Positions 5,793 through 64,000 of a stretch of DNA of 64,000 bases are shown in pieces. Source of the DNA: Terriglobia bacterium (GTDB lineage: Bacteria; Acidobacteriota; Terriglobia; Bryobacterales; Bryobacteraceae). Location: positions 45,802 to 109,801 of the forward strand of contig CAVYHD010000022.1 of assembly GCA_963768075.1 (NCBI GenBank), in the 5' to 3' direction. The translations under genes were made by a program, and so were the position numbers. The notes below the pieces were generated by a model that saw only the letters and a program-made list of their open reading frames with translations, searched no databases and was not told the origin of the DNA. Position 1 is the stretch's first letter. Each line of letters opens with the position of its first letter.

Positions 5793-5877
5793 GACTGCCA
5801 GCCCGCGGCGCTCCCATCGCCTTTTCGATACATGCAAAGTTCAGTTTGATCGCACCCGTCGCGCCGATCAATCGCCA

Positions 5878-9592: not shown

Positions 9593-9646
9593 CGTGCCTG
9601 TAACAAACAGGCTCACCCGTTAGTAACATTTCCGTAACGAATTGGT

Positions 9647-9675
9647 AATATATATGAAACCATTCTGCCAGTAAA
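9647..9675 (-). promoter_or_regulatory. Possible sigma70-like promoter for the minus-strand operon (TTTACT-17 nt-TATATT)
   Basis: Read on the reverse strand: -35 at 9670-9675 and -10 at 9647-9652 with a 17-nt spacer, about 30-55 nt upstream of the candidate starts. The acidobacterial promoter consensus is poorly known. Confidence 0.25.
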
Positions 9676-9834
9676 TGGCAGGGGCAGATTGCCGCTAGAT
9701 ATTCCGGAGCAACAAGTGGGCCGGTGGATCAGTCTGCATTGACACCGCTGCGGCCAAGTCCGGAAGTGTCAAAGGGGCGAGTGCGCATCGGCATTCAACA
9801 ATGCGCGCATGATATCTTCTGAAAATCACGCTAC

Positions 9835-10605
9835 ATGCGTAAACTGAGATTACTTACGCTGCTGGCTTCCCTTGGTCTGAGCGCGCAGACGGGCGTTCTC
9901 AAAACGAAACCGCTCGCCAACCCGGGGGACATCGATCACGGCGCGCGTTTATTTACGGCCAATTGCGCTCTCTGTCACGGCCCTAAGGGCACCGGCGGCC
10001 GCGGCGCCGATCTAGCGCGCCCCCGGCTGACACGAGCCATTGACGACACAGCACTGTTTCAAATCATTCACGACGGCATCCCCGGTACGGAAATGCCTGC
10101 CAACCGTGCCATGACCGACCACGAGATGTGGCAAGTGATTGCCTACGTTCGAACCCTGGGCCGCGCCGCTGCCGAAAAAGTTTCGGGCGATCCTGCCAGT
10201 GGGGCAGCCGTTTTCCGCGCCAAAGGTTGTATGGGTTGCCACGCTATCGGAGCAGCCGGTGGGAATATGGGACCGTCCCTGGCAGAGGCCGGCGAGAGGC
10301 GCAGCGCCGCGTACCTCCGTGCCGCGCTGCTGGATCCCACGGCAAATCTGCCGGATGGCTTCACTATGGCCGAGATCACGACCACCGCGGGAAATCATGT
10401 GACCGGCATTGTTTTAAACGAAGACACTTACTCGATCCAGATACGCGATCTGGCTGGCAATCTGCACTCGTTCTGGAAAGCGGAATTAACGGCTCTTGAG
10501 GAGCACGATGACCGCACGCCCATGCCGAGTTTTCGCGGCCGGTTGAGCGATCGCGAATTGAATGATCTGGTGGCGTACCTGGTTTCCCTCCGAGGTATCC
10601 AATGA
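9835..10605 (+). CDS. Dihaem c-type cytochrome (signal peptide)
   Basis: Two CxxCH motifs ('CALCHG', 'CMGCHA'). Signal peptide 'MRKLRLLTLLASLGLSAQ'. The stop overlaps the next ATG (ATGA at 10602-10605). Confidence 0.85.
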   Translation: MRKLRLLTLLASLGLSAQTGVLKTKPLANPGDIDHGARLFTANCALCHGPKGTGGRGADLARPRLTRAIDDTALFQIIHDGIPGTEMPANRAMTDHEMWQVIAYVRTLGRAAAEKVSGDPASGAAVFRAKGCMGCHAIGAAGGNMGPSLAEAGERRSAAYLRAALLDPTANLPDGFTMAEITTTAGNHVTGIVLNEDTYSIQIRDLAGNLHSFWKAELTALEEHDDRTPMPSFRGRLSDRELNDLVAYLVSLRGIQ

Positions 10606-12179
10606 AGTCCGCAGCCTGGATTCTGGCCGCGTGCCTACAGCTTTCGGCGCAGGTGCCATTCGATCGCATCCGCAGCGCGGACCGCGAGCCCGGCAATTGG
10701 CTCACCTATTCGGGCAACTATAGCGCGCACCGGCATTCGTTGCTGAATCAGATCAACGCGGGCAATGTCGCGAAGCTGAAGCCGGTCTGGGTATATCAAG
10801 TGAGCACCCCCGGGCGAGTGGAAACCACGCCGTTGGTGGTCGATGGCGTCATGTACCTCACGGAGCCTCCGAGCAACGTCACGGCGCTCGATACCCGCAC
10901 CGGCAGACCGTTGTGGCGATTTCAGCGCCCCGTACCCGGGGACGTTCGCGTGTGCTGCGGGCAAGTGAATCGAGGTGTCGCGCTGCTGGATGAACTGGTC
11001 TTCGTCGGCACGGTCGACTCCCACTTGATCGCCCTCGACTCCAAGACCGGACAGGTGCGCTGGGATGTGACCGTCGCGGACTATAAAACCGGCTACTCTA
11101 TCACTGTCGCGCCCCTCGCCGTGAAGGACAAAGTCATCATTGGGATCGCTGGCGGCGAGTTCGGCGTTCGGGGGTTCCTCGACGCCTATAACGCGAAATC
11201 GGGCCAGCATGCCTGGCGCTTTTGGACGGTGCCTGATCCGGGTCAGCCCGGACACGACACCTGGGCCAGTGAAAGTTGGAAGACCGGGTCCGCTACTACC
11301 TGGCTGACCGGCTCTTACGATCCCGAATCGAACCTGCTCTATTGGGGCACGGGTAATCCTGGTCCGGACTGGAACGGTGATAGCCGCGCTGGTGACAATC
11401 TCTACACAGATTGCCTTCTGGCGGTCGATGCGGACACGGGCAAGCTGAAATGGTACTTCCAGTTCACACCTCACGACACGCACGATTGGGATGCAAACGA
11501 GATTCCGGTGCTAGCCAGCGCTGCCATCCGCGGCCAGGATCGCAAGGTGATTCTATTCGCGAACCGGAACGCCTTTTACTACGTCCTGGACCGCTCGAGC
11601 GGGGAGTTTCTTCACGGCCGTGCGTTCGCGCACCAAAGCTGGACGAAGGGACTCGACGACAAGGGCCGGGCGGCGCCGCTGCCGAACATCGAGCCGAGCG
11701 AAGAGGGCACAAAGGTCTACCCAAGCCTGAACGGCGCCACCAATTGGCAAAGCCCCGCATACAACCCAAAGACAGGCCTGTTTTATGTAGCGGTGCGCGA
11801 ACAGGGGGGCATTTATTACAAGGGCGAAGCTGATTACCAGCCCGGCAGCCTTTTCAATGGCGGCGGATTTTCCAGGATCCCGCACGAGCGCGGCTACGGA
11901 GCCATCCGCGCACTTCAGCCGGCATCGGGCGAGATGCAATGGGAGTTCAAGCTGTTCTCGCCGCCGTTTGCGGGTGTGCTCTCAACCGCGGGTGGTCTCG
12001 TTTTTGCCGGAACAGCCGAAGGCGATTTTCTGGCATTAGAAGCGACCACGGGGAAGTCTCTGTGGCACTTCGAGACGGGCGCAATGATTCGGGCAAATCC
12101 CATAAGCTACCTGAGCGACGGAAAGCAGCAGGTGGTGATCGCTTCGGGAAATGCTATCTTTGCGTTCACGGTTGAGTGA
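10602..12179 (+). CDS. PQQ-dependent dehydrogenase, methanol/ethanol family
   Basis: 'WLTYSGNYSAHRHSLLNQIN', the vicinal disulfide pair 'VRVCCGQVNRG', and repeated W-motif propeller blades. Confidence 0.9.
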   Translation: MKSAAWILAACLQLSAQVPFDRIRSADREPGNWLTYSGNYSAHRHSLLNQINAGNVAKLKPVWVYQVSTPGRVETTPLVVDGVMYLTEPPSNVTALDTRTGRPLWRFQRPVPGDVRVCCGQVNRGVALLDELVFVGTVDSHLIALDSKTGQVRWDVTVADYKTGYSITVAPLAVKDKVIIGIAGGEFGVRGFLDAYNAKSGQHAWRFWTVPDPGQPGHDTWASESWKTGSATTWLTGSYDPESNLLYWGTGNPGPDWNGDSRAGDNLYTDCLLAVDADTGKLKWYFQFTPHDTHDWDANEIPVLASAAIRGQDRKVILFANRNAFYYVLDRSSGEFLHGRAFAHQSWTKGLDDKGRAAPLPNIEPSEEGTKVYPSLNGATNWQSPAYNPKTGLFYVAVREQGGIYYKGEADYQPGSLFNGGGFSRIPHERGYGAIRALQPASGEMQWEFKLFSPPFAGVLSTAGGLVFAGTAEGDFLALEATTGKSLWHFETGAMIRANPISYLSDGKQQVVIASGNAIFAFTVE

Positions 12180-42866: not shown

Positions 42867-45800
42867 ATGAAAAGCCTCCGGTACAGCGCATGTTTGCTGT
42901 TCCTGATTTTCACTGCCGTCGGCCTGTATGGACAGGAGAGCGGCTCGATCACCGGTACCGTCAGAGACAATACGGGCGCTGTGGTTCCTGGGGCTGAAGT
43001 CAACATTACGAGCCAGGCCCAAGGGGGGATCCAAAAGGTCACCACCAACTCGAATGGCGACTTCCTGGTGGCGGGACTTTCAGCGGGGACCTACGACATC
43101 ACGATCACCGCCAACGGCTTCAAGAAGTACGCGGCTACAGGGTGTGGTGCTGCGCGTCGGGCAGAAGGCGCGTGCCGACGCTACGCTGCAAGTCGGCGAG
43201 ATCACGACGGAGGTGACCATAGCGGGGGAAGCCGTGGCCGTAGGTGGAAACGCAATCCGCGGAGATATCGGGAATTGTCACCGGCAAGGAGATCAGCCAG
43301 ATCGTCCTGAACGGCCGCAATTTCTCGCAGCTTGTGACCCTGACGCCGGGCGTGAGCAATCAGACCGGTGAGGATGAAGGCACGGTCGGCATCATGGGCA
43401 ACGTCGCGATGAGCATCAACGGCGGCCGCACCGAATACAACAACTGGGAGATGGATGGCGGCGACAACATGGATAACGGCAGCAACAACGGGCTGAACGT
43501 CTATCCCAACGTGGATGCCATCGCCGAAGTCAAGGTGCTGACCTCGAACTACGGCGCGCAGTACGGCCGCAACGCGTCGGGCACGATTGAGACGGTAACC
43601 AAGTCCGGCACCAAGGGGTTCCACGGCGATCTGTTTGAGTTCGTCCGCAATGACGACTTTAACGCGCGAAATTTCTTCCAGGCGACGGTTCCCGAGTACA
43701 GGAAGAACGACTTCGGCTTACACCCTTGGGGGGCCGCTTTATATTCCCGGCTTTTACAACACGAAGAAAGAAAAAACATTCTTCTTCTGGTCCGAGGACT
43801 GGCGCCGGGAGATTATCCCCGGGCAAACCTTCGATCTTCAGGTTCCCTCGGCTGCCGAGCGGGCCGGAAACTTCTCTGATGTCTGCCCTGGGGCGGGTTC
43901 TATGGTAAACAAGACCGGATTCCCGGATTGCCCGGTGAATCCGAAGACCGGCTCCTATTTCCCGAACAACACGGTTCCCGTCGATCCTAACGCCGCGGCG
44001 CTGCTGACGCTGATGCCGGCGGCCAACGCGCCCAATAGCTACTACGATGCGGCTCCGGCCCAGCCCACGCATTGGCGCGAAGAGTTGGTTCGTATTGATC
44101 ACAATTTCAGCGACAACTTCCGGATTTTCGGTCACTTCATCCACGATTCCTGGAACACCGTTACGCCCGACTCCGCTTTGGGGCAACGGCGCGTCTTTCC
44201 CGACCATACAAACGGCGTTCAACGGCCCTGGCGTCAGGCCGTGTTGCCATGGCGGCCAACATTTCGCCCACGCTGTTGAATGAGTTCACTTTCAGCTACA
44301 CCACCGATCACATTTTCCTGAATGCGCTCGGCCCCGCACAGCGGCCGTCGACAATGACCATGACCGGCCTGTACAACAACGGTTTCGGCGGTCTGTTGCC
44401 GGCGGTCAGCGTAAGCGGCGGGATCAACTACGATACCGGCGGATTCCAACTCGACACCGGATACTTCCCCTGGAACAACGCCAACCCCACCTACACGTAC
44501 AAGGACCAGATCACCAAGATCATCGGCGGTCACAATCTTATATTTCGGCGCTTACCTGGTTCTGGCGGAGAAGAACGAGCAGAACAGCCCCTATGTTCAG
44601 GGCATCCTGAACTTCGACAACACGTCGCCGGTAACCACCGGCAATGCGTTTGCCGACATGCTGAATGGCGACATCCAGTCTTACACGCAGACCAATCTGA
44701 AAACGAAGTACTACAACCGCTACAAGATTGTCGAGCCTTACTTCCAGGACGACTGGCACATCACCAAGCGGCTCACGCTGAATCTGGGCGTGCGCTTGAG
44801 TCTGTTCGGAACCTACCGCGAGATACAACATCAAGCGTATAACTTCGATCCGGCAGCGTACCAACTTTCCGCCGCGCCACAGATCGATGCCACGGGCTCG
44901 GTAACGGGCCAAGCGGGCGCCATTATTCCCAACTCCGGCAATCCGTATACGGGACTGGTGCAATGCGGCGTCAACGGCGTGCCCGCGGGCTGCGCGAAAG
45001 GCCATTTGTTCAACCCGGCTCCACGCCTGGGCTTTGCTTTCGATCCGTTCGGGGACGGTAAATCCTCCATTCGCGGTGGCTACGGCGTATTTTTCGAGCA
45101 CACCAACGGCAACGAAGGCAACACCGAATCGCTCGAAGGGAGCCCTCCGCTGGTGCTCACGGGAACGCAGTACGATATCGTCGGCTATACCAAAATCGGC
45201 GGAGGTGGCGTGCAATTTCCGCTGAACGTCAATGCCATTCCGACGGTAGCTCGCTGGCCCTACGTGCAGCAGTGGAACCTGAGCGTGCAGCGTGAGTTGG
45301 CCAAGGGCACGATTCTCACCGTGGCGTACGTGGGCAGCAAGGGCACGCACCTTTCGCTCCAGACCGACATCAACCAGCTATACCCGATTTCGGCGGCGCA
45401 GAATCCATATCCAGCCGGGCAGGCTATGACGCAGGCGGACTGCAACAACGGTACTGTCAATGGCGTGGCTCCGACCGGGGCGGCTGCTATACAGTTTGGC
45501 ACCGCGTGTGGCAATAGCCCCGCCCCCTTCGTCCCGTACCGCGGCTACGGCACCATCACCGGGCTGTTTCCGCAAGCCAACTCGAACTACAACTCGATGC
45601 AGGTGTCCGTACACCGGCACATCGGCGCCCTGAGCTTCGATCTGGCGTACACGTGGAGCCACTCGCTCGATGACTCCTCTGACCGTTATGATGGCGGCTT
45701 CGTCAATTCCTACAACTGGGCGCAAACGTACGCCAGCTCGAATTTCGACCAGCGCCAGATTCTGAATATCGGCTACGTCTACGACCTTCCGTTCTTCACC

Positions 45801-46337
45801 GAGGCGGGTCTAAGCCACAAGCTGCTGGGTGGGTGGCAGGTTTCCGGGCTCACCACCTTCCAGTCCGGCGAACCTTTCAGTGTCAGCGACGGCCTCTTCA
45901 ACTCCGGTGTGGGCAACGGGACGGGCACTGGATCGTTTCTAGATCAGATTGGGAACCCCAATTCCGTCACGCAGCAAAATGTTGCGGGTGTTGTCGGCCC
46001 ACTGCTGTTCAATCCGTCCGCCTTTGCTGCGCCACAAGGGCTGACTTTCGGCACCGCGCAGCGCAATGCTTTGAACATCCCTCATCGAACGCAATTTGAC
46101 CTGGGCCTGTTCAAGTATTTCCAGGTCCGGGAGAGCAAGAGCTTTGAATTCCGTGCCGAGGGTTTCAACATCTTCAATCACACGCAGTTCAACGGCGTTA
46201 ACGGCGGCACGAGCTGCTTCGCTGGATCGGACTTCTCCGCCGGGGACGCGAGCTGCCTCGCCAACAACAACTTCCTGCGCCCGAGCGGGGCGCACAACCC
46301 GCGCATCCTGCAATTGGGCGCGAAGTTCATTTTCTAA
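42867..46337 (+). pseudogene. TonB-dependent receptor (CarboxypepD_reg + plug + barrel); about 6 frame breaks in the first half
   Basis: AAGGAG RBS followed by 'MKSLRYSACLLFLIFTAVGLYGQESGSITGTVRDNTGAVVPGAEV'. Breaks lie near 43140, 43245, 43718, 44165, 44232 and 44540. The gene reads cleanly from about 44540 to the C-terminal 'LQLGAKFIF'. Confidence 0.85.
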
Positions 46338-49229: not shown

Positions 49230-52200
49230 TTAGAAATGAAACTTGACCGCGGCCTGAATCAACCGTGGCGCAGCCGCACTCACTACACTACCGAAATTCG
49301 GGTCGTTGATTTCGCCGTCAACCGCGGATGGGCCGTAGAACTGGGCGTGGTTGAACACATTGAATGCTTCGACGCGAATATCCAACGATTTCGATTCCGT
49401 GATTGGCACCGTTTTGCTGATCTGCATGTCGAAGTTCTCGATACCCGGGCCATAGAAGAAGCGGCGCGCCGCGTTCCCTAACTGTCCGAGCGTCTCCGGC
49501 GCAAACAGACTGGTATTGAATTCAGGCCGGCCGTTGCGCGGATTGGTATTGATTTCGAGCGGTCCCGACATCATCTGCGGCGTGTCGAGCAGTTCATTGT
49601 TGACGCCGTTGCCAAGTGTTCCCAGCAGAGACCGGTCAGAATCGTCGGCAAGCGTCACCGGGAATCCCGTACTGAACCGGGTTGTTCCAGAAAGGCTCCA
49701 GCCCTCCGTCAAGCCGGTTGCGACGGAATAACTGATCGAATGGTAAGGCATAGGTATAGGTCGCCACGAAGTTCTGCGTCATGTCCCACGAGGAAATTAC
49801 GCGGGTGAGGCGCGCATTGAACGGATTGGTTTGCTCGCCCAGATTCGACGCCTCATCGATCGATTTCGAATACGTATAACCGACCAAAACCGTGGTTCGG
49901 TTGCTGGTGGCTAATCGCAGATTGACTTCGAGAGCGTTGTAATCCGAATTGCCGACGGACTTTTGCGCCGTCGTCGATCCGAAGCTAGGACCTAGCCCAA
50001 CCCGAGTTCCCTGGTACATTCTTCCCGATGCGGATGTGTAGGCGGCATCTTCGCCGAAGGGGCCGCAGGTGGAGCTTCCCGGCGCTACTTCGCTCGGCTG
50101 GCTGAGGCTGAGACACAAGCGCCGGATTGCCCAAGTTCGCCGGAACCAGGACCAGGAGATGATGGCCCTCATTGCCCGCATAGCTAACCGTCAACAGAGC
50201 GCTTTTGCGTAATTGTCGCTGAATTGAAAACATGTAGTTTTCGGTATAAGGCACACTGTTCCGGTAGTAGAAGTAAGGGTCTGCGCTGATCGGAGTGACG
50301 GCAGCGAAATCGAACCCCGTGTACGGATTTTTTGCAGAGACATTATGCGGCGGGAAGTTCAACGGGAATGGATCGGTATTCTCGGCGCCATTAGCCGAGT
50401 TGATATACGGCGTAGCAAACAGCGGCGGTTCCGGACTCAGATAGTTGTATCCGTAGGGAGGCACGCCATACATGATCCCTGCCGTTAATCCAGGAAATGC
50501 CGTGTAGAAAATGCCATAGCTTGCGCGAATGCTGCTCTTTCCCGGCTCGCCAACGAGAGTCTTTAGAAATCCATTGTCGAAGTTGGGAGAGTATGCGACG
50601 CCGACTCTGGGAGCGAAGTTGTGTAACTGCGAAGGCGACAACGTTGGCGGAATGCCGGGATCGCCCGGCACAACCAATCCATTCATTGCGTTGGGATAAA
50701 GCACCGATTGCTCGCCCGGAACCATGGTCTGGATCTGATTGTACTTTTCCCACCATGGCATGATGAGGTCCCAGCGCACGCCGAGGTTCAGGGTAAGATT
50801 GCTTCTCGCCCGCCAGCTATCTTCCGCGAAAGCTGCGCCGTATCGATTCCGCAAATAGAAGTGTGCGCCCGAGGTCTGCGTAAAGTTACTCGGAAACCCC
50901 AGTAGAAAATCAGCGAAGGCTGAGCCTGTTTCGGTTCCGTCGATATTGAACGTTCCATTGAACGTGGCATTCGGATCTTCATTGACTTGATCGTAGTGAA
51001 ACTGGCCGCCGAATTTGAGCGTATGGGCGCCGACAACCTTCGATACCGTGTTACTCAGATAAATCGTGTTGTTCCACTGATCTACGTTTGTGATCGGAAC
51101 CCCCATGACGAAAGACGGAAATACAATGTTCTCGACACCCTCAAACTGCGGCGCCTGGACGATTATGCCCGGTGTGCCGACGCCCGTCACGAAGCCTTGC
51201 GACTGAAGGGTTACTCCCAGACCGCCGTGCGGCTGGCCGATATTGTTCACATTTCGAAGTAAGCCGATGTGAAACTCGTTCACGGTCGTAGCGCCAAGGA
51301 CCTTGGTGTCGCCGATGGTAAGCATCTGCGCCTGGCCGATGGTTAAGGCATCGAATCCGGGTATGCTCGCTCCGCCCTGGCCGCCGGGATACGGATTATC
51401 CAGCCGGTAATTGTCGACGAAATAGTAACCAAAAAGCTGACCGAAACGTGTATTCGCATCGAGACGGACGCCGCCCTTGTCATCCCGCACAGTCTCCGGG
51501 TACGCGGAGGTGGCGAACAGATTCGTCCCTATGTTGGGCTGCGGGATATATTTCAGAAGATTCACTGCCGGCGACGACCACGCCCTGGTTGGGATCACGG
51601 CGTTTGGAAATACGCAGTTCGATGTGCTGGAACAGCCGGGCGCGTAGTAGGGCTCGCCTTGGGAAACGCCGTAGCCCGAGCTCTTGCGTGAGCAGCTTGG
51701 CCGTATAGGTCCCGCTCACAGTTCCCGTCAACGTACTCGCCATATCGCTCAGGTTTCCGGCACGATCCTGCAGGGAGGGCACGGACGTTTCTGGCGAATT
51801 GATGCCCTCCACCGTGCGCGTTCCCTGATAGTCGACAAAGAAAAAGAGCTTGTTCTTTATAATCGGACCGCCGACCACGCCGCCAAATTGATTCTGCCGG
51901 AAGGCGCCTCGTGTACTGTCGAAGAAATTTCGGGCGTCCAAGTCTGTATTTCGCAGAAACTCGAATGCATCGCCATGAAACGCGTTGCTGCCGGACTTCG
52001 TCACCACGTTAATCATCCCGCCGTTATAATTTCCGTATTCGGGATCGAAGTTGTTCGTCAGAACGCGGAACTGCTGGATCGAGTCCAGGTTCGGGATGAT
52101 CGATGTTCCCCCATTCATGTGCTCCTGCACGTCGATGGAATTCATCATGAATCCGTTCGACGATTCCCGTTGGCCATCGATCGAGACATCGCCCGGATTC

Positions 52201-52789
52201 AGATCGCCGGATGGGTTGATCGTTCCCGTCACGCCCGCCATGATCACCGAGGTTGGCGTCAGTGTCGTCACCGGGGTTACACCGGGTTGAATCGCGAGGA
52301 GGTCCGTGTAGCTGCGCCCGTTCAGCGGTAATGCCTCGATCTGCCGGTCGGATACAACCTCGCCGAGATGCGTCGCCACCGTGTCGACCTGCGTCTGCAT
52401 TGCCTCTTCGGATTCGTTAACCGTGACCGCCTCAGATCGTTGACCTACCTGCATTACGGTGTCAATGCGGAGAGCAGCATCAGTATCGACGGTGAGATTC
52501 GTTTTTTGCTGCTTCTGGAATTCGGTTGCCTCAATCGTCAAATCGTAATGGCCAACGGGAAGCGCTGGGAAGGAATAGAAGCCCTGCGCGTCGGAGGTCA
52601 CTTTAAACGTCGGTCTTAAGGGTAGTGTTGATCAGCGTGAGTTTGGCGCCAGGAATCGCGGCGCCGCTCGGATCCTTGACCACGCCCGGAGAGGCTCCCT
52701 GCGGCGAATGCCCAGACCCAGGCGGCCGGAACGACAACAAGTGCCGTGAGCTTCGTCAATCGTCTCGTTTTACGAAATCTTTCCCTCAT
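49230..52789 (-). pseudogene. TonB-dependent receptor (CarboxypepD_reg type); about 5 frame breaks
   Basis: The ATG at 52789 gives 'MRERFRKTRRLTKLTALVVVPAAWVWA'. Next come 'VKDPSGAAIPGAKLTLINT', 'TSDAQGFYSFPALPVGHYDLTIEATEF', the plug 'LPLNGRSYTDLLAIQPGV', and the C-terminal 'IQAAVKFHF'. Breaks lie near 52685, 52608, 51680, 50120 and 49725. Confidence 0.85.
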
Positions 52790-53512: not shown

Positions 53513-53970
53513 GACGACGTCCTCTTAATCTCGTGAATGGCGGCGACACTGAGAAAATTGGACTGTGTCGCGGGGTTATGATCCTGAGCCCCCAAGACCT
53601 CCTGGGCAAGTTCTGCCAGAGGAATGCGCCGTCTCCGGCTGGCGCCTCGCATGTACTCGTAGGCTTCTTGCTCGCTCAGCCCCCGCTCGACCTGGAGAAC
53701 ACCTTTGGCGCGCTCCACTAACTTTCTCGACGTGAGCCGCCCGTTCACGGTCTTGAGCTCTGCGTGTAGCCGCTCAATCTTTTTGACCGACCACGTCGCT
53801 AATCCGAACAGGCTCAGATTTTCCGCGAGCGCCTCGGGCACTCGATGATAAGGAGACGCTGGCGCCGCGAAGGCGAACACCACGGTGACCACACGCCGCC
53901 GAGCTCGCCAGGGAAACAGCAGAAAGGATCGGGAATCTGGCGAGATCGAATCACACAGAAGCTGAGCCAA
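53509..53970 (-). CDS. ANTAR-domain RNA-binding regulator, probably 5'-truncated
   Basis: '[48 protein letters not shown]' is a clear ANTAR domain. Only about 45 residues of a possible GAF end precede it. The frame closes 13 codons upstream of the TTG at 53970 (stop at about 54010-54012). Confidence 0.7.
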
Positions 53971-54750
53971 CGGGCTCCCGGACTCTACCGCTCCCGAAGT
54001 CTCACCAAATCAGCCGGGGCCACGCGCACCGCCGCTCTCGTCCGCCGGCGTATTGAGCGCGGCGGCGAACGGGTGTGGCGTCTTGAAGACTTTCGCGATC
54101 TGTCTTTCGAAGCTGTCGCGCAGGCGCTTTCACGCCTCGCACGCGACGGAACCCTTCAACGTCTGAGCAAAGGCGTTTACTATCGCACGCGCATGACTGC
54201 GTTCGGCAAGAGTCGTCCTAATCCTGCCACGATCCAGAAACTCGCATCCAAAAGTAAAGCGGTTTTCCCGGCAGGGATCGCCGCCGCCAATCTCTTGGGG
54301 TTCACAACGCAGACTACACAGCGCAACGAGGTGGCCACCAGCGCTCTCAGTCTACCGAGGAAGCTTGTCGGCAGCGAGACCGTCATCCACGCCCGCAGAC
54401 CGGAGACATGGGCGGGTCTCTCCCAGGAGGACGCAGCCATGCTCGACTTTCTGAGGCAAGCGGGGCGAACGAGCGAACTCTCTGCGCGCGACACCATCCG
54501 CCGAACGCTAACGCTTCTGTCAGACAAAGGCCGCTTCGAGCGTTTGCTTAGAGTCGCCGACTCGGAACCACCACGCGTGCGCGCTATCCTCGGAGCGATC
54601 GGCGACCAGCTCGGCAAAAATCAACCGGCGCTCAAGCATCTCCGAGAATCCCTGAATCCATTCTCGAAATTCGACTTTGGCGTCCTGTCAGGATTGCGCC
54701 ACGCAAGCAACTGGCAGGCCAGGGAGCCTCACGCGCATGAGACTGTTTGA
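53845..54750 (+). CDS. AbiEi-type antitoxin/regulator (DUF6088-like subtype); start uncertain
   Basis: wHTH '[26 protein letters not shown]'. The gene overlaps the following AbiEii gene by 14 nt. No ATG/GTG/TTG lies between 53845 and the conserved N-terminus near 53990, and the first 125 nt overlap the ANTAR ORF. Confidence 0.65.
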
Positions 54751-55756
54751 GCACCGCGATTTCGAGCAGGCGATTCTGGGGGCGGCGGAACACTTTCGCG
54801 ATCAGGGATTGCGGCCAGCGATCATCGAGAAAGACTACTACGTCACCGAAGCGCTGCGTGTTATCGCCGCCACCAGGCACAACAACAGCATCACCAACGA
54901 CAACAGCATCATCAACCGCAACATCGTCACCAACAGCAGCATCATCTTCAAGGGCGGCACCAGCTTATCCAAGGGATGGAACCTTATTCAAAGGTTTTCG
55001 GAGGACATCGACATCTTCCTTGACCCGCAGGCCTTTCAACCTCCTCTCGTGAAAAAGGGCCATCGACCGAGAACTTAAGAAACTTCGCGACACCGTCGGT
55101 GCGCACCCGGCGCTAAGGTTTGTCGAAGGGGAAAGTCAGACCATCGGCGGATTCGGGCGCAATGACCGGTTTGCCTACGAGCAGCGTTTCGGCGGTCCCG
55201 GCGAAGTCACGCCCCCGTGTGCTGCTCGAAGCCGGCACCGCCAGCGGACGTGAGCCTACGAGCGTCGTTGAGCTGCACTCGTACTTGGGACAGTTCTTAC
55301 GGGACAAGGGCCCGTCTCTTGGCGCAGAAGACGAAGGATCGTTTCCGATGCGCCTGCTCCACTTCCGGCGTACGTTTGTGGAGAAGATGTTCGCGATACA
55401 CAGCAAGGTGGAACTGCTCAAGCGCGATGGACAGCCACTCGGCTCTTACGCGCGTCATTACTACGACCTGTTTCAATTGGCTAGCGCACCGGGAAGTCAT
55501 CGCGATGCTGAACTCCGCCGAATACGCGGCTATCAAAGAGGACTACGACCGCATCAGCCGCGCTTATTTCCCCAAGAGCTATTTTCATCCCGACGAGATG
55601 AGCTTCTCCAAGAGCGACGCGCTATTTCCGCCCCCGGATTTGGCGGCGAGCATCGGTGCCGCGTATGAAGCCCAGTGCAGGATGCTTTGTTACGGTCCGC
55701 ACCCGTCATGGAACGACATTCAGGCCCGCTTTCTGCAACTTCGAGAGCTGCTGTAA
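54737..55756 (+). pseudogene. AbiEii/AbiGii-family nucleotidyltransferase toxin; 3 frame breaks and an internal repeat insertion
   Basis: '[25 protein letters not shown]' (NTase motif), 'LLEAGTASGREP', and 'RHYYDLFQLA'. Breaks lie near 55055 (A5G3 run), 55212 (C5 run) and 55485. Confidence 0.8.
54881..54946 (+). repeat. Imperfect 15-18-nt tandem repeat (AAC..AACAGCATCAYC x4) inside the AbiEii gene
   Basis: aacaacagcatcacc / aacgacaacagcatcatc / aaccgcaacatcgtcacc / aacagcagcatcatc, encoding '[22 protein letters not shown]'. It is A/C-rich, unlike the surrounding DNA. Confidence 0.6.
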
Positions 55757-57166: not shown

Positions 57167-57444
57167 GCCGTCAAAAAGAGGCACGGTGCTTCGCGCCGAC
57201 TGAAGGGGTGACACGCCACCCCAGAATGGGTTGCTCAGTCTCACGGGAATCGAAACCGTTGCGCGGTGTCTGAACGCATCCGATCTTCTCGTATCTATTT
57301 GATTCTATTTACAGGGGCACCGATCCATTTGGCCATAATCGCTACGGGAATTCTCCGCGTGCGAGCAATGTGTGAGCAAAGCCCGAACGGGTTCGTCAAA
57401 TGGTCTGGCTGCCATCCTGGACGGGATCAATCGAAGATGGACGT

Positions 57445-59025
57445 ATGATAATCACGCAGGAGATCTTCGAAGCATTTCTGCACTGTCCGACCAAGTCGTA
57501 CTTGTCCTCCCACTCCGGCGCTGGGGCCGCCACCGCGCTGGTCCGAGCGCGGCAGCAGTGGGAAGAACTCTTTCGGCACACTGGTTCTTCCACCGTGAGT
57601 ACCCGTGTCCCTGACAATCAGGTGTACGTGGGGACACCTATCGCAGAGGCCATCCGACAGCAGCAGTACCGCGTGATACTCGACTGCACGCTCCAGGCAT
57701 CGGACTTGCGCGCGCACACCCACGGTTTGGAACTCGTCCGATCGCCCGGGGCCAAAGGCCGGAGCGCCTACGCACCGTTCCGCTTCGTGTCGACGGAAAG
57801 GATCTCGACGGCTGACAAACTCCTGCTGGCGTTCGATGCTTTTGTGTTTTCGCAGACCTACGGCACCACGCGGCCGCGCCTCGGTAAAGTTATTCACGGC
57901 CGGGACTACTCGGCAACCACGGTGCCGCTAGCGCCGCTCTATGCCAAAGTTCAATCCGTCGTCACTGCTATTGCTTCTCAACATATCAGCGCCACGCCAC
58001 CGCCACTCGTGCTGAACAAGCATTGCGCCGAGTGCCAATATGCAGCCCGATGTCGAGAATTCGCGATAAAGGCGGACGATCTGAGCCTTCTCGCCAAGAT
58101 GAGCGAGAAGGACCGCCAAAAGTATCACGAGAAAGGCATTTTCACGGTCACCCAACTGTCGTTCACGTTCCGACCGCGGCGGCGCATTGGCGACCACAGA
58201 AAGCATGAGCACGCCTTGCAAGCCCTGGCCGTTCGAAAAAATCAGGTTCATGTCATCGGCCCACTCATATATGCTACGGCGGGCACCGCAGTCTATATCG
58301 ACGTCGAAGGCGATCCCGATCGTGATTTCTATTACTGCATCGGTCTTCGGTTTGAAGCCGACGGAGTGATTGTTCAGCGCTCGTACTGGGCCGATAGCCC
58401 CTCGGACGAAGTAATGATGTGGGCCGATTGCCTATCTGCGCTGGGCACGATCGATGACCCACGCCTGGTGCACTACGGAAGCTACGAGACTACGTTCCTT
58501 CGCCAAATGAGAAAGCGATACCCCAATGCCGAACGGGCCGCTCTGCTCGACCAGCTCATCGCGTCGGCCGTCAACCTGCTCTCAACGATCTACTCTCACG
58601 TGTACTTTCCCACGTATTCCAATGGCCTTAAAGACGTGGCGGGCCATCTCGGCTTTCGCTGGTCAGATGCCACGCCGTCGGGCCTGGTCGCTCTTGCTCG
58701 GCGTCGAGAGTGGGAATGCACGCGGGCGCCCGAGCTCAAACACATGCTAGTGACGTACAACGCGGAGGATTGTGCCGCTGCCCAAACAGTTGCCGAAACG
58801 CTCGCCGCACTCTCGCGATCCTCACCTACGTGTAACGGCAATATTGTGGACGTGATTAAGCTGAAGCGCGAATATCCCCAGCGGTTCGGGAAAATCGATT
58901 TCGCGCTCCCAGAGTTTCAACAGATTAATGATGCGGCTTACTGGGACCACCAGCGCGAGAAAGTGTACGTGCGTTCCAGCAAGCGCCTAGAAAAAACAGC
59001 GCGGAAGCTTCTGGAGAGAGTCTAA
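57445..59025 (+). CDS. RecB/Cas4-like nuclease + RNase-H-fold 3'-5' exonuclease (TM0106-family layout)
   Basis: The Cas4-type Cys pattern has an N-terminal 'FLHCP' plus 'KHCAECQYAARC' (C-x2-C-x5-C). The exonuclease motifs are 'AVYIDVEGDP' (ExoI), 'HYGSYETTFL' and 'TYNAEDC' (Y-x3-D). I could not pick out the PD-(D/E)xK catalytic residues confidently by eye. Confidence 0.8.
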   Translation: MIITQEIFEAFLHCPTKSYLSSHSGAGAATALVRARQQWEELFRHTGSSTVSTRVPDNQVYVGTPIAEAIRQQQYRVILDCTLQASDLRAHTHGLELVRSPGAKGRSAYAPFRFVSTERISTADKLLLAFDAFVFSQTYGTTRPRLGKVIHGRDYSATTVPLAPLYAKVQSVVTAIASQHISATPPPLVLNKHCAECQYAARCREFAIKADDLSLLAKMSEKDRQKYHEKGIFTVTQLSFTFRPRRRIGDHRKHEHALQALAVRKNQVHVIGPLIYATAGTAVYIDVEGDPDRDFYYCIGLRFEADGVIVQRSYWADSPSDEVMMWADCLSALGTIDDPRLVHYGSYETTFLRQMRKRYPNAERAALLDQLIASAVNLLSTIYSHVYFPTYSNGLKDVAGHLGFRWSDATPSGLVALARRREWECTRAPELKHMLVTYNAEDCAAAQTVAETLAALSRSSPTCNGNIVDVIKLKREYPQRFGKIDFALPEFQQINDAAYWDHQREKVYVRSSKRLEKTARKLLERV

Positions 59026-60217
59026 CGTTCCGGTAACGAAGGTCGTAGAGTGCGAGGAGCGACGGCCCCATCGCTGCGCTGAATGTGGTGCGACGACAAT
59101 CTATCGATGGGGGCGACTTAGCCGAGTCGTCTACGACCTCAAATTGTCCGGGGCTGGCATCAAACGGCTGGTTATACGGTATTCCTTCCCCCGTTACATC
59201 TGCTGGTGCTGCAAGACCACCTTTCATCAGTATGCAAGCCAAGCCAAGTACGGCAACACCCTCTGCGCCTATATCGTCTATCAAATCGTTGAACTGCAAC
59301 TGCCACAACACGCTGTGGCAAAGAGCATGTGTCAGTTATTCAACATCCCGACGTCTTCCGGCATGATCAATCATCGCAAAGCCGGCATGGCCGAGCGTTA
59401 CGAGAACACATACCAATGCATCCTCGAAAGGATTGCGGGCGGCACGCTTGTGCATGCGGATGAGACGCGGGCTACCGTCGCTGGAAAGGCGGCATACGTC
59501 TGGGTGTTTACAAGCCTGGAGGATGTGGCGTTCGTTTACAGTGAGAGTCGCGAGGGAAGCACCGCACAAAAGGTGCTGCAGCAGTTCCGCGGCGTGCTGG
59601 TTTCCGATTTCTACGCTGGCTACGATTCCATCGCCTGCGCGCAGCAAAAGTGCCTGATTCATTTGATGAGGGATATCAACGATGATCTCTTTAAGCAGCC
59701 GTTCAATGACGAGATGAAGGAGATCGGGAGGCGGTTCGCGGAGCTGCTGCGACCCATCATCGACTCCGTGGACCGCTTTGGCCTTAAGACTCGCTACCTG
59801 CGTAAGCACGGGCGAGCCGTTGAGCGGTTTTATCAGACGCTCTCAAGGCGGGAGTACCAAACCGAAGTGGTGGCTGGCTACGTACGGCGCTTCGAAAAGA
59901 ATCGGGACCGCTTGTTTACGTTCCTGGATCATGACGGCGTCCCCTGGAACAACAATAACGCCGAACACGCGATCAAGGCATTTGTGCGACTACGGAACAT
60001 CATCGGGGGCGCGAGCACGGCAAAGGGCCTGCGAGAGTACCTCGTCCTTCTGAGCATCAGTGAAACCTGCAAATGCAAGGGGGTTCGTTTTCTTGATTTC
60101 CTGTTGTCACAGGAGTCTGACGTGGACAAATTCGCCAGCCACGGGCGACTTCGGCGCGGGATTTCAGACGGCAAATCATTGGTTGGCCTCGCGGCCGGGA
60201 TGACACTGGCGGATTGA
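58991..60217 (+). mobile_element. IS66-family-type DDE transposase ORF (zinc finger + HTH + DDE) without its own start codon
   Basis: zf-IS66-like 'CAECGATTIYRW...RYSFPRYICWCCKTTF'. DDE residues lie in 'LVHADETRA', 'VLVSDFYAGY' and 'WNNNNAEHAIKAF', with 'QKCLIHLMRDI' between them. The frame opens at 58991 right after a TAG. The first ATG/GTG/TTG is TTG 59144, which would remove half of the zinc finger. No inverted repeats or tnpA/tnpB found. Confidence 0.8.
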
Positions 60218-60286
60218 TCGGCGCTGGAAGTGATCCTGCCCGGATTTGCGCGCCGCGCCACGCATTCTGCCGAAAAACAAGGCGTT

Positions 60287-60299
60287 TGATGTAACATCA
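60287..60299. promoter_or_regulatory. Palindrome TGATGT-a-ACATCA 22 nt upstream of the AbiEi start (candidate operator)
   Basis: Read directly. AbiEi proteins are known to autoregulate through inverted repeats in their promoter, but this one is short. Confidence 0.25.
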
Positions 60300-60320
60300 A
60301 GAAAGTTGTAGTATTGTGTT

Positions 60321-60932
60321 ATGGCCCAGTCTCACCGTGAAGCGTCGCGGCGGCTCTTTGAGTTCGCCGAGCAGCAGCAGGGCTTCTTCACCACGAAGCA
60401 GGCCAAGGCAGCCGGATTCGCCGAAAACACGCATCCCTATCATGTGCAGGTCGGGAACTGGATCCGCGAGCACCGCGGTATCTACCGGCTCGCTCTGTTT
60501 CCGACGGCTGATCGGCCCGACCTCGTCCTTTGGGCGCTGTGGTCGCGGAACCGGAACGAGGAAGTCGAGGGTGTATACAGCCACCACACGGCGCTCAGCC
60601 TCTACGATCTGTCGGATCTGAATCCGGCGAAGCTCCACATGACGGTTCCGACGGATTTCCGGCGCAACAGCGATATTCCCGGCATCCTCGTACTTCATTA
60701 TGCCGACCTGCCCGAGAGCGACGTACAGACGGCGCAGGGCTTCAAGTTTACTCGCCCTCTGCGGACGATTCTTGACCTGATCGAGGCTGGCACGGTCGAA
60801 CGGAACTTCATCCGCCAGGCGCTAAGGCAGGCTGTTGACCGTGGTCTGATCACTCGCCAACAGATTCGGAACGCGCGAATGAGCGGACCTGCGCGCAAGA
60901 TCGTTGAGGAAGTGCTGCGGCGAGCTGCATAA
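60321..60932 (+). CDS. AbiEi-family antitoxin / transcriptional regulator
   Basis: 'FFTTKQAKAAGF...HRGIYRL' N-terminal wHTH pattern. TAATG stop/start overlap with the next gene. Confidence 0.85.
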   Translation: MAQSHREASRRLFEFAEQQQGFFTTKQAKAAGFAENTHPYHVQVGNWIREHRGIYRLALFPTADRPDLVLWALWSRNRNEEVEGVYSHHTALSLYDLSDLNPAKLHMTVPTDFRRNSDIPGILVLHYADLPESDVQTAQGFKFTRPLRTILDLIEAGTVERNFIRQALRQAVDRGLITRQQIRNARMSGPARKIVEEVLRRAA

Positions 60933-61816
60933 TGCCGTCACCCAGGACATATTCGACGGCGGGGGCATTCCGAAGGGCGCTTGAAGAACGCCTGAAGAGG
61001 GCATCTCTGACTGATCAGATCGACCTCAATCGCCTCCGGCGGCAAGTATCATTCGACCGTCTGCTGGCAAGGCTGTTCCGTGAAGAACCAGCACCCTGGG
61101 TTTTGAAGGGCGGTTACGCGTTGGAGCTACGCTTCAAGGCTGCTCGATCAACGGTGGACATCGACCTGACGTTGCAGCGAGTGGTCGCCGCAACATCAGC
61201 GGGCGATGACACAAACCAGGTAGTACGGCAGATGCTGCAGAGTGTGGCTGACATCCCTCTCGGTGATTGGTTCGAGTATGCGATCGGACCGCCCGTCATG
61301 GATTTGACCGCCGCGCCTTACGGCGGTGCCCGCTATCCCGTCGAAGCTCGAATGGACGAACGGATCTTTGCCCGATTCCACCTGGACGCCGGCGTTGGTG
61401 ACGTGGTTATGCAGCCGCTGGAAACGATCGAGTGCCGGGACTGGCTGGGATTCGCCGGCATCGAATCGTCGCAGGTCCTGATGATCGCTCGCGAACAGCA
61501 GTTCGCCGAAAAGATTCATGCCTACACGCTCCCGCGGAACACTGCGAACAGCAGAGTGAAGGACTTGGTGGACCTGGCTCTCCTGATCGGATCGGGTGGG
61601 CTGGATAAACAGCGGATTCTGGACGCTTTGCGTCTGACCTTTGAGAGAAGAGGAACGCACGATTTGCCGACGGGTTTGGTTCCGCCGCCAGCGGATTGGC
61701 AGATCCCGTTTCAGGCCCTGGCGGAAGAATGCGGGCTCCCGACAGATGTCGCCGCGGTGTTTGCGGGGGTACAGGAGTTCCTCGAAGAAGTGCTGGCACA
61801 GCGCACGGAGCGGTGA
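60932..61816 (+). CDS. AbiEii/AbiGii-family nucleotidyltransferase toxin (intact)
   Basis: 'WVLKGGYALELRFKAARSTVDIDLTL' (NTase G-G...D-x-D) and 'SRVKDLVDLALL'. Confidence 0.85.
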   Translation: MPSPRTYSTAGAFRRALEERLKRASLTDQIDLNRLRRQVSFDRLLARLFREEPAPWVLKGGYALELRFKAARSTVDIDLTLQRVVAATSAGDDTNQVVRQMLQSVADIPLGDWFEYAIGPPVMDLTAAPYGGARYPVEARMDERIFARFHLDAGVGDVVMQPLETIECRDWLGFAGIESSQVLMIAREQQFAEKIHAYTLPRNTANSRVKDLVDLALLIGSGGLDKQRILDALRLTFERRGTHDLPTGLVPPPADWQIPFQALAEECGLPTDVAAVFAGVQEFLEEVLAQRTER

Positions 61817-61823
61817 ACGCCGT

Positions 61824-64000
61824 ATGACTGAGAACGGTTCAGAATCTCTTCCATTCGAACCTCCAGAGCAGGAAAATATTCGCCTCCGTGAGGAAAATGC
61901 TCGCCTGCGGCGGCTTCTGGCGGTTCACAGCATTCCGATTCCGCAACTTGCGCCAGAGAATCCGCCTCCAGCCAAAACCGTCGAGACGGCGCCACCGGTG
62001 GACAAGGAGGAGCGTGCCAGAAAGAGAATCGCGCTGTTTCGAAGCCTGTTTCGCGGGAGAGAAGATGTCTACGCACGGCGATGGGAGAATGACGACGGCC
62101 GGTCGCGGATATATGCCGGCGGCCGTGAAGGATTGGAAGGCTATCAACAAAAGCCGCCCGGAGGAGCGGAAGAAAGTCGACCAGAAGACACGGAAGTTCC
62201 TCCCAATGACCGACGCCGTCATCGAGAACCACCTCTTGGGCAAGGAGACCGTTGGCGTGTATCCGCTCCTGCCCGACGAAACGTGCTGGTTTCTCGCGGC
62301 AGACTTCGACAAGAAGACGTGGGAGTATGACTCCCAGGCTTTCCTTGAGACCTGCCAGGAGTTGAGTGTGCCCGCTGCCCTGGAGCGTTCTCGTTCCGGG
62401 AAGGGCGGCCACATTTGGATCTTCTTTGATCGTGCGCTGCCGGCGATTACCGCGCGCAAACTGGGATGCGTGATTCTCACGCGAACCATGGAGCGCAGGC
62501 ATCAGCTCGGTCTCGATTCCTACGATCGCTTTTTCCCCAACCAGGACACGATGCCCAAGGGAGGGTTCGGGAACCTGATTGCGCTCCCCTTGCAGTTTGC
62601 GCCGCGCAAGTCGGGTAACAGCGTGTTCATTGACTCCGACTTCCACCCTTATCCCGACCAATGGCAGTTTCTTTCGACGATTCGACGAATGCCGGCCGAC
62701 GCCGCGGAGGAGATCGTTGCGGAAGCTCAGCGCAAAGGCGACCTGATCGGAGTCCGGATGAGCATCGCCGATGACGAGGGTGCACAGGACCCGTGGACTT
62801 TGCCGCCTTCCCGCAAGCGAAGGGAGCGGCCAATCGAAGGGCCGCTGCCAAAGAGTGTTCAGATCGTTCGCGCGAATCTTGTTTACGTGGAAAAGAAGGA
62901 TCTACCACCAGCCATGCTGAATCGGCTACTCCGGCTGGCAGCATTTCAGAACCCCGAGTTTTACAAGGCTCAGGCGATGCGGCTTTCGACGTACGACAAG
63001 CCGCGCGTGATCGCGTGCGGCCAGGAATTCGCCCAGCACATCGCGGTGCCTCGTGGATGTCTGACGGAGACGTTGGCTCTCCTTGAGGCGCACAAGATTC
63101 GGCCAGAAGTTCGCGACGAACGGTACTCAGGCACAGCGATTGAAGCGGAGTTCCAAGGTCAGCTTCGACCGTTCCAGGAGGAAGCGGTCGCGAAGATCAC
63201 TGCACATGACGAAGGTATCCTCTGTGCTCCGACCGCATTCGGGAAAACCGCCGTTGCGGCGTGGCTGATTGCGAAACGCAAGGTCAACACTCTGGTCGTC
63301 GTTCACCGGCAGCAGTTGCTCGATCAGTGGCAGGAGCGCCTGGGGATGTTCTTGGATCTGCCAGCCAAATCGATCGGGCACATCGGTGGAGGGAAAACGG
63401 AACGGACCGGGTGCGTGGACGTCGCCGTCATCCAAAGCCTGTATCGAAAAGACGAAGTGAAGGACTTCGTTGCTGAATACGGCCAGGTGATCGTCGACGA
63501 ATGCCACCACATATCTGCTTTTACGTTCGAACAGGTGATGAGGCAGGTGAAGGCCAAATATGTTGTCGGCCTGACCGCAACGCCTACACGGAAAGACGGG
63601 CACCATCCGATCATTTACATGCAGTGTGGCCCCGTGCGGTTCAGCATGAGCGCCCGGACGATGACCGAAACGACGCCTTTCGAGCACAAGGTGACTCCCC
63701 GCCATACGGAGTTCCGGATGGCGCCCGACCTTACCGAGGTCACGATTCAGGACATCTACGCCGCGCTCGTCGATGATGCCTCGCGCAACGAGATGATCGC
63801 CAACGATATCGTAGCGCGCCATAGAATCGGGACGTTGCCCGCTGCTTCTGACCGGCCGGACAGAGCATCTTCAGTATTTCGCATCCAAACTTGCAGGTGT
63901 TGCCAAGCACGTCTTCGTTTTGAAGGGTGGCATGGGGAAGAAGCAGCGCCGGGCAACCGCGGCGGCGCTGGCATCAGTGCCGGAAGATGAATCGCGGGTT
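61824..64000 (+). pseudogene. Archaeo-eukaryotic-primase (AEP/PrimPol)-like domain fused to an SF2 (DEAH/type III restriction-like) helicase; 3' end outside window; 2 frame breaks
   Basis: N-terminal coiled coil 'ENIRLREENARLRRLL' and 'LFRSLFRGREDVYARRWE'. AEP motif I is 'WFLAADFDKK' and motif II is 'ERSRSGKGGHIWIFF', followed by 'GGFGNLIALPLQ'. Helicase motifs are Walker A 'APTAFGKTAVA', 'VIVDECHHI' and 'GLTATPTR'. Breaks lie near 62105 and 63815. After the second break the frame continues 'AIESGRCPLLLTGRTEHLQYFASKL...' to the window end. Confidence 0.8.

Follow-up and report, generated by a model that had tools for sequence, protein, structure and literature searches.

A conserved abiEi-abiEii-primase-helicase block in an acidobacterial contig and its association with Tn7-like transposons

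The DNA analyzed here, a 64,000-nt stretch of contig CAVYHD010000022.1 referred to as the window, carries near its right end, from about position 60286, a block of three co-directional genes: abiEi, abiEii, and a gene coding for an archaeo-eukaryotic primase (AEP) domain fused to an XPB-like superfamily 2 (SF2) helicase, henceforth the AEP-helicase. The features are listed in Table 1. An initial annotation made from the nucleotide sequence had described the abiEi-abiEii pair as intact and the three genes as nearly devoid of intergenic space, and both descriptions proved correct. The two abi genes are uninterrupted open reading frames (ORFs) with matches in Pfam and PADLOC. AbiEi matched PF13338 (AbiEi_4; 1.2e-10, residues 10-58) and the PADLOC AbiEi profile (6.9e-70, residues 7-188), and AbiEii matched PF08843 (3.6e-30) and the PADLOC AbiEii profile (8.6e-89). 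The catalytic motifs of AbiEii, LKGGYAL...STVDIDL (GG...DID) and KDLVDL (KD..DL), are intact. The antitoxin gene comes first, and its stop codon shares one nucleotide with the start codon of abiEii (TAATG, 60930-60934).

Table 1. Location of the three-gene block, its predicted promoter and its upstream neighbor in the window.
Feature	Position	Strand	Description
Promoter-like region of the block	60286-60314	+	predicted; -35 TTGATG (60286-60291), 17-nt spacer, -10 TAGTAT (60309-60314)
abiEi	60321-60932	+	203 amino acids, intact; antitoxin and transcriptional regulator, winged helix at the N terminus
abiEii	60932-61816	+	294 amino acids, intact; DUF1814-type nucleotidyltransferase toxin
Spacer, abiEii stop codon to AEP-helicase ATG	61817-61823	+	7 nt
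AEP-helicase gene	61824-64000, cut by the window end	+	AEP primase-polymerase fused to XPB-like SF2 helicase; codons 1-726 of about 820
AEP domain	about 62025-62709	+	within the AEP-helicase gene
Helicase lobe 1	about 63160-63591	+	within the AEP-helicase gene
IS66-family DDE transposase with N-terminal RNase_H_2	57240-60285	+	split into 57400-59025 (541 amino acids) and 59144-60217 (357 amino acids); context, not part of the operon

The third gene had been reported to encode AEP motifs followed by Walker A, DECHH and TATP helicase motifs and to run past the window end, as was indeed found. The window translation contains LAADFD, SGKGGH, GKT, DECHH and TATP, and AEP motifs I (DxD), II (sGxGxH) and III (QD) are all readable. 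In an alignment of 42 sequences reaching down to 48% identity (alignment A1; numbering of P0001, an 820-amino acid homologue), the AEP residues D160, D162, S191-G192-G194-H196 and Q240-D241 are invariant and the helicase motifs GKT (473-475), DECHH (558-562), AT (585-586) and QYVGRLHR (759-766) are conserved. The last of these, motif VI, falls past the window end. After repair of the reading frame, the protein matched the primase-polymerase family PF22548 (AEP-TOTE) at 1.3e-95, followed by ResIII (6e-25) and DEAD (6e-12), and its best PADLOC match was the CRISPR-associated PrimPol profile (1.1e-93). The match to the NCBIfam PrimPol_Msp model, 7e-30, is under that model's cut-off. Among sequences of known structure, the helicase part matched archaeal XPB (6p4f, also 5tnu) at about 7e-22. 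The AEP part matched chain 7nqd at 1e-16; it was deposited as 'TPR_REGION domain-containing protein' and we take it to be the CRISPR-associated Prim-Pol (CAPP). The gene had been called a giant ORF, which is not supported: more than 100 database clusters that are 85-95% identical to the AEP-helicase measure 806-825 amino acids, that is, about 820, and the repaired window protein is 95% identical to P0001. Since the window holds codons 1-726, about 285 bp of the gene should lie past position 64000. An exact-match search with the window AbiEii retrieved no record from which the contig could be extended.

The AEP-helicase gene contains two +1 frame disruptions, which a comparison with ten homologues identified as single-base insertions, an extra C at about 62106 (TCGCGG where the homologues have TCG-GG) and an extra base at about 63813. 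Indels are also found in ordinary chromosomal genes of the window, as two TonB-dependent receptor genes (43244-46337, + strand, and 49230-52601, - strand) each appear as four consecutive ORFs with three frameshifts. Therefore, the frameshifts in the AEP-helicase gene may be assembly errors. Split AEP genes were found in several related long-read metagenome-assembled genome (MAG) loci as well. Three ORFs of 2.7-3.7 kb elsewhere in the window are intact, so the indels are unevenly spread. Assembly error may explain the frameshifts as well as decay does, and the window copy of the gene is incomplete and possibly broken.

A promoter-like region precedes abiEi. The abiEi ATG is located 6 nt after the -10-like TAGTAT, and no Shine-Dalgarno sequence precedes it, so the mRNA is probably leaderless. 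The dyad TTGATGTAACATCAA (60286-60300; TTGA-N7-TCAA) overlaps the -35 element and is a candidate AbiEi operator; in a comparison of 48 loci it was kept in 16 only. The sequence TGTAGTATTGTGTT, directly before the abiEi ATG, is identical in 34 of the 48, and the region formed by TTGA-N7-TCAA and TGTAGTATTGTG is a candidate for AbiEi binding. The proposed promoter scores 8/12, under the threshold of the consensus scan, which does not list it. The loci share DNA homology from about 35 nt upstream of the abiEi ATG to a point no more than a few tens of nucleotides from the AEP-helicase stop codon. A scan of the + strand detected no terminator-like sites between the three genes. The 7 nt between abiEii and the AEP-helicase gene leave no space for a separate promoter, and co-transcription of the three genes from the promoter ahead of abiEi is the default expectation.

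The linkage of AbiE and AEP-helicase was surveyed from both sides. One genome per species was scanned with P0001, which produced 80 loci, nearly all of them in Acidobacteriota MAGs; four more were obtained from metagenome look-ups, and the 84 AEP-seeded loci were clustered altogether. Homologues with at least 72% identity to P0001 and enough upstream sequence were considered close (n = 65). AbiE or its remnant lies directly upstream in 54 of them: intact abiEi and abiEii with the same spacing in 40, both genes in split form in 6, and a remnant, usually the abiEii 3' end, in 8; the other 11 have none. AbiE is absent from 11 of 12 outgroup homologues (66-71% identity), and in a neighbor-joining tree the ingroup members devoid of AbiE correspond to scattered losses. 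In the opposite direction, a metagenome scan with the window AbiEii identified 80 loci at 81-94% identity, 72 of which have room downstream. The AEP gene starts 10-38 nt downstream of abiEii in 66 of these 72. The six exceptions are deletions, such as that in locus L099 (loci are designated by L and a number), where abiEii is joined to the tniQ end. AbiEi was found upstream wherever room allows, without exception. Homologues of abiEi with 74-97% identity occupy the same position in related loci, and the spacing of the abiEii-AEP junction (11 nt between the last sense codon and the ATG) is kept in most of them. More than 100 independent contigs carry these three genes with identical spacing, an arrangement far beyond chance.

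The three genes also diverged together. The median number of synonymous substitutions per site (dS) is 1.06 for abiEi, 1.18 for abiEii and 1.10 for the AEP-helicase gene, and the corresponding ratios of nonsynonymous to synonymous substitution (dN/dS), 0.096, 0.134 and 0.093, indicate strong purifying selection. Pairwise distances are correlated between AbiEii and AEP-helicase (r = 0.82), AbiEi and AEP-helicase (0.74), and AbiEi and AbiEii (0.87). Because AbiE neighbors AEP homologues in most loci and the genes co-diverged, the block is an evolutionary unit. The neighborhood survey suggested in the initial annotation therefore disposed of the possibility that the homologues never adjoin AbiE, and the reciprocal linkage, shared spacing and correlated distances supported its view of the three genes as an operon-like unit, which proved to be conserved and co-inherited. 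AbiE is a two-gene system in the cases that have been studied (Lactococcus, Streptococcus agalactiae). The statement that it is a self-contained pair is valid for those cases but not here, where only 7 nt separate the pair from a third gene and the linkage is seen in 66 of 72 loci. A literature search on AbiEii and primase-polymerases found no paper describing an AbiE-AEP operon. The same three-gene block was also observed in a Nitrospira MAG (L005) and a Verrucomicrobiota MAG (L041), with AEP proteins 84-92% identical to P0001; its presence in these bins reflects either cross-phylum transfer or mis-binning.

In intact copies from related genomes, the block is part of a Tn7-like transposon of 10-12 kb that circulates among soil Acidobacteriota, and it lies immediately internal to the transposase-proximal end. 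The order within the element is end, abiEi, abiEii, AEP-helicase, DUF6788, TnsA-TnsB fusion (TnsAB), TniB, TniQ, two small cargo genes and the other end, and about 75 nt with their own promoter-like palindrome separate AEP-helicase from DUF6788. The domains of TnsAB, TniB and TniQ were confirmed in relatives (L002, L006, L013, L168 and others). The element in L002 has a 25-nt terminal inverted repeat around 11.1 kb (TGTGGTTTAAAGCATAACTTTGCCG ... CACA) and three 22-bp repeats between its end and abiEi. Terminal inverted repeats of the form TGTGG...CCACA, together with repeated AAASCATAAYYYTGCC sites upstream of abiEi, were found in 17 loci. Perfect 5-bp target duplications flank six elements (L006, CACAG; L013, AACAG; L020, CATTT; L028, TAACG; L061, CCCAC; L070, CAGCG), which with L002 constitute the complete elements, and tandem elements 5 bp apart occur in two loci (L008 and L056). 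In L005 the AEP stop codon is followed, at a distance of about 45 nt, by a transposon-end-like sequence. The AEP 3' end was considered as a Tn7 attachment site and rejected, because the terminal repeats enclose the block and the 5-bp duplications are found on either side of the complete element.

The TnsAB fusion of the relatives aligns over nearly its full length with PmcCAST TnsAB (PDB 9BW1; bioRxiv 10.64898/2026.05.29.728539), with an E value of 8e-281. Therefore, these elements are relatives of the type I-B2 CRISPR-associated transposon (CAST) machinery that are devoid of CRISPR, as no CRISPR-Cas module was found within the delineated element ends. Carriage by a transposon accounts for proteins that are 85-95% identical across different acidobacterial orders. 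AbiE was already recorded as cargo of Tn7-like elements in 19 cases, none of them in Acidobacteria (PMC8649781). Sampling seeded with TnsAB showed that the genes upstream of tnsAB vary among sister elements. The same AbiE-AEP block was found at 70% TnsAB identity, AEP-helicase without AbiE at 77% and 59%, neither of them at 68%, Gabija genes at 66%, and a PIN/RHH pair with a SNF2 gene at 58%. Gabija (OLD-like ATPase and UvrD helicase; L171, 3103-6712) and the PIN_3/RHH pair (L174, 4647-5431) were observed upstream of DUF6788-tnsAB at the position of the AbiE-AEP block. No ends were found for L171 or L169, both sister elements, so their Gabija or AEP genes may lie either inside or outside the element.

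Most blocks are no longer associated with transposition genes. Downstream sequence of 3 kb or more was available for 67 genome loci, 15 of which retain the tns genes; orphan blocks are thus the majority. A search for mini-elements, in which inverted TGT...ACA ends would directly flank orphan blocks, produced no convincing case. The initial annotation had expected the genes downstream to belong to the same module. This was not found in the relatives: in intact ones a separately promoted DUF6788-TnsAB-TniB-TniQ operon follows the block, and in L001 an IS21 element does.

The window copy is also stranded. The TnsB-site motif has no match in the window, and tblastn with DUF6788, TnsAB, TniB, TniQ and the two small cargo genes produced no matches in the 64 kb. 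The place occupied in other loci by the Tn7-like end is taken, upstream of position 60282, by an IS66-like element, the protein of which matches PF13482 (RNase_H_2) and PF03050 and whose terminal repeats were not identified. Thus, the window copy is a stranded remnant in which the Tn7-like end was replaced by an IS66-family element and which has no tns genes within the window. Its closest relative is L001, where positions 5421-12175 are collinear with window positions 57240-64000 at 94.8% identity. In L001 the IS66-like/RNase_H_2 fusion is intact (948 amino acids, 5548-8394), and the AEP gene is followed by IS21 and then by type I cas genes, without tns genes. The left edge of the shared block is a T-arm resembling a tRNA 3' fragment (window, about 57240-57270; L001, 5415-5445); no complete tRNA was found at this edge. 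In the same region (window, 57183-57270), a 49-bp hairpin-containing sequence adjacent to the T-arm was noted, and it was seen again in inverted orientation in L001 (15761-15809), 3.3 kb past the AEP gene. A second AbiE-like pair, of another subfamily, was also observed in the window. It consists of an AbiEi-like gene (DUF6088/AbiEi_4; 53845-54750) and, after it, AbiEii-like fragments (54677-55756) that occupy two or more frames, and so this pair is apparently degraded.

The two halves of the block also exist apart. AEP-helicase is intact without AbiE in L003, L004, L012 and L016 and in the TnsAB-seeded loci L169 and L172, and AbiE is intact without the AEP gene in L099, L148 and L152, which indicates that they are separable. 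The fusion family is large: full-length alignments (E <=1e-145) were obtained for 150 or more clusters at 50% identity, and 3,638 reach 1e-30. Homologues were found on 246 plasmid records, 97 of them full length at about 50% identity; of the 246, 96 belong to conjugative and 34 to mobilizable plasmids. Among 50,697 phage records there was no instance of the fusion, and no AbiE genes were found in the 11 plasmid contexts that were inspected. A CcbP-like small gene (PF11535) was observed downstream of AEP-helicase in L019, L024, L029, L030, L036, L039, L044 and L080-L083, often starting 8-12 nt past the stop codon, and upstream in divergent orientation in L003, L004, L012 and L016. The idea that this neighbor encodes an acidic DNA mimic was discarded, the protein being basic (pI 9.7).

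In Alphaproteobacteria, homologues with about 50% identity were found directly after tniQ, whereas in Acidobacteriota the gene is at the other side of the tni operon. The Sphingobium plasmid pTB1 (L182, 4932-9283) has the order X, TniA-like, TniB, TniQ, AEP-helicase, with an overlap of 4 nt between the last two genes. The gene has the same position in Sinorhizobium pMl1 (L180, 5640-9277) and in a Paracoccus-type element (L176-L179), the latter with an identical protein on 24 contigs. A tblastn search of plasmids with one TniQ retrieved 4 records only, TniQ being too divergent for a count of such adjacencies. Four further plasmids have AEP-helicase in an ArdC/ParB/DUF736/strawberry-notch region next to a recombinase-in-trio element. 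This element was observed beside AEP-helicase in Yoonia (L184, 4125-14712), pAMI8 (L085), Agrobacterium (L185) and R. etli (L187), and in Yoonia the pair seems to split the strawberry-notch gene, which suggests that AEP-helicase travels with recombinase-in-trio elements too. An Aeromonas homologue is located in a defense island, between an NYN-LOTUS gene and WYL and type I restriction-modification genes. The adjacency of AEP-helicase to TniQ-type transposition genes in two phyla is a striking and apparently unreported tendency; a literature search on TniQ, primase and helicase found no paper on such an association.

Taking these results together, we propose that abiEi, abiEii and AEP-helicase form a conserved, self-promoted operon of a Tn7-like transposon, in which AbiE would provide addiction or abortive infection as well as the promoter, AEP-helicase would be a separable accessory enzyme, and the window copy is a remnant. 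We assign to this reading a probability of about 0.5. The mechanism that we envisage is derived from the established biology of AbiE in Lactococcus and S. agalactiae and from the MenT nucleotidyltransferases, which act on tRNA acceptor ends. AbiEi would repress the leaderless promoter and neutralize AbiEii. Upon depletion of AbiEi, through loss of the element or infection, the AbiEii nucleotidyltransferase would arrest growth, resulting in addiction, abortive infection or both. AEP-helicase, whose gene has no space ahead of it for a separate promoter, would be co-transcribed at a level set by AbiEi. It could prime and translocate on DNA, either in the element's own DNA transactions or in conflict with other elements, and would act as an accessory enzyme of mobile elements, outside the toxin mechanism. 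An accessory role is favored over a step in the toxin pathway because both halves persist intact alone and distant homologues lack AbiE. Between the two possibilities raised at the outset, a composite defense system or toxin-antitoxin addiction of the primase-helicase, the evidence leans toward separable modules under one shared promoter.

Several points weigh against this proposal. We know of no experiment on any member of the AEP-helicase family. The 7-nt junction, kept at a median dS of about 1.1, could equally mean a mechanistic partnership. The attachment of AEP-helicase to TniQ-type modules in two phyla suggests a role in transposition itself rather than that of a generic accessory. The promoter and the operator are inferred from conservation, the former being sub-threshold and the latter poorly kept. 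Only 15 of the 67 loci keep the tns genes, yet the sharp common boundaries of the block are unexplained by simple decay. Finally, the window copy may or may not be functional.

Other explanations must be weighed against the same data. The three genes could be one integrated abortive infection or defense system, where AEP-helicase would sense or process invading DNA or make a nucleic acid product that triggers AbiEii or is used by it. Tight reciprocal linkage and co-divergence speak for such a system. The AEP family takes its name from a conflict system, its best PADLOC match is a CRISPR-associated PrimPol, AEP domains were recruited to defense reverse transcriptases (PMC9226505), the Aeromonas homologue is in a defense island, and the corresponding position in sister transposons is occupied by Gabija or by a PIN toxin-antitoxin pair. 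However, each half of the block occurs intact without the other, the outgroup and proteobacterial homologues lack AbiE, and AbiE functions as two genes in the studied cases, and we consider an integrated system unlikely. About as doubtful is the possibility that AEP-helicase is an accessory factor of TniQ-type transposition, a primase and translocase that would help to fill gaps, to replicate the strand-transfer product or to choose the target, with AbiE as a mere neighboring addiction module. Its gene is directly upstream of DUF6788-tnsAB even in the AbiE-less branch with 59% TnsAB identity and directly after tniQ in the alphaproteobacterial elements, but sister elements with 58-68% TnsAB identity have no AEP gene. 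Moreover, many homologues have no tni genes in their vicinity and are found in plasmid ArdC/ParB/DUF736 regions, in integrase islands or beside recombinase-in-trio elements, and the low retention of tns genes among acidobacterial loci also argues against it. A bolder form of this idea would make AEP-helicase an unrecognized transposon-encoded primase-translocase of TniQ-type elements, including CAST relatives, acting in strand transfer, gap repair or target choice, and placed in Acidobacteria under an AbiE switch that couples maintenance to DNA synthesis; we regard it as improbable.

It is more plausible, while still not the outcome we would expect, that the module in the window is dead, AEP-helicase being a true pseudogene in a decaying island where only AbiE may still work. 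The two frameshifts within 2.2 kb, the missing transposon end and tns genes, and the broken IS66-like and second AbiEii-like genes nearby are in agreement with this scenario. On the other side are the two ordinary TonB-dependent receptor genes with three frameshifts each and the split AEP genes in related long-read MAG loci, so that assembly indels would explain the disrupted frame of the window gene equally well. Very little speaks for a TOTE conflict system, a name that PMC12458937, citing Aravind, Iyer and Burroughs (2022), derives from TPR, OB, TBP and Effector. The statement in the initial annotation that RefSeq applies this label was accurate, as NCBI and UniRef name the homologues 'TOTE conflict system archaeo-eukaryotic primase domain-containing protein', and the label holds for the domain, which belongs to PF22548. 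It does not hold for membership in the system, since the partners are absent. No TPR, cold-shock/OB or TBP genes were found between 50 and 64 kb of the window or in the annotated neighborhoods (recurrent clusters of the 84 AEP-seeded loci, loci with precomputed Pfam annotation and the 11 plasmid contexts). The sole cold-shock gene, on one Bradyrhizobium plasmid, is 6 kb away on the other strand and is regarded as unrelated. The Pfam name AEP-TOTE thus describes a domain family rather than this locus, which by its predicted gene content is not a TOTE system, and we consider the opposite extremely improbable.

The preferred reading, an AbiE-governed operon of a Tn7-like lineage with a separable AEP-helicase, has several implications. 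What is new is an AbiE module with a conserved third gene on a Tn7-like transposon lineage. An AbiE pair followed clade-wide by a DNA primase-helicase gene is a concrete candidate for an extended AbiE system or, at least, for a toxin-antitoxin promoter that governs a DNA-synthesis enzyme if the genes are co-transcribed as expected. The AEP-helicase family is large and uncharacterized, and its label refers to a conflict system of which the present members are not part, which illustrates that a Pfam domain name is no proof of system membership. Its attachment to TniQ-type modules in two phyla includes close relatives of the PmcCAST machinery used in genome engineering. AEP-helicase would represent a novel type of factor encoded by transposons if it helps in transposition, and a novel AEP-based defense gene if it is defense cargo. 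The intact relatives L006, L013, L020 and L168 are better experimental objects than the window copy.

Comparison with known systems places the block at the intersection of several of them. With TOTE systems it shares the AEP domain, classified in the Pfam family named after them, but its neighbors are AbiE or Tn7-like transposition genes rather than TPR, OB/cold-shock domain and TBP genes. The core motifs DxD, sGxGxH and QD are those of CAPP (PDB 7NQD/7NQF) and of the AEPs of mobile elements; here, in contrast, the AEP is fused to an XPB-like SF2 helicase instead of an SF3 helicase, MCM or reverse transcriptase, and the gene, unlike that of CAPP, is not beside cas1-cas2. The helicase resembles archaeal XPB/Rad25 in its lobe 1, with invariant Walker A, DECH and motif VI residues, but it is found on mobile elements and no Bax1-like nuclease partner was seen. 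The transposons of the relatives resemble PmcCAST, a type I-B2 system with a natural TnsA-TnsB fusion, in TnsAB, TniB/TnsC and TniQ, in TGT...ACA ends with repeated binding sites, in 5-bp duplications, in tandem insertions and in the carriage of defense genes. They differ in having no CRISPR-Cas inside and in the 3.9-kb AbiE and AEP-helicase operon between the end and tnsAB, and in the 64 kb of the window itself these transposon features are all missing. Known AbiE systems, those of Lactococcus and S. agalactiae and their mycobacterial MenA-MenT relatives, share with the block the winged-helix N-terminus of AbiEi, a DUF1814 AbiEii with intact motifs, overlapping genes and carriage by mobile elements, and the poorly kept dyad of the predicted promoter may correspond to the inverted repeats through which AbiE promoters are negatively autoregulated. 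Unlike those systems, the present, predicted one belongs to Acidobacteriota hosts, apparently has a leaderless transcript, and includes a third gene, 7 nt downstream, that was co-inherited across the whole clade.

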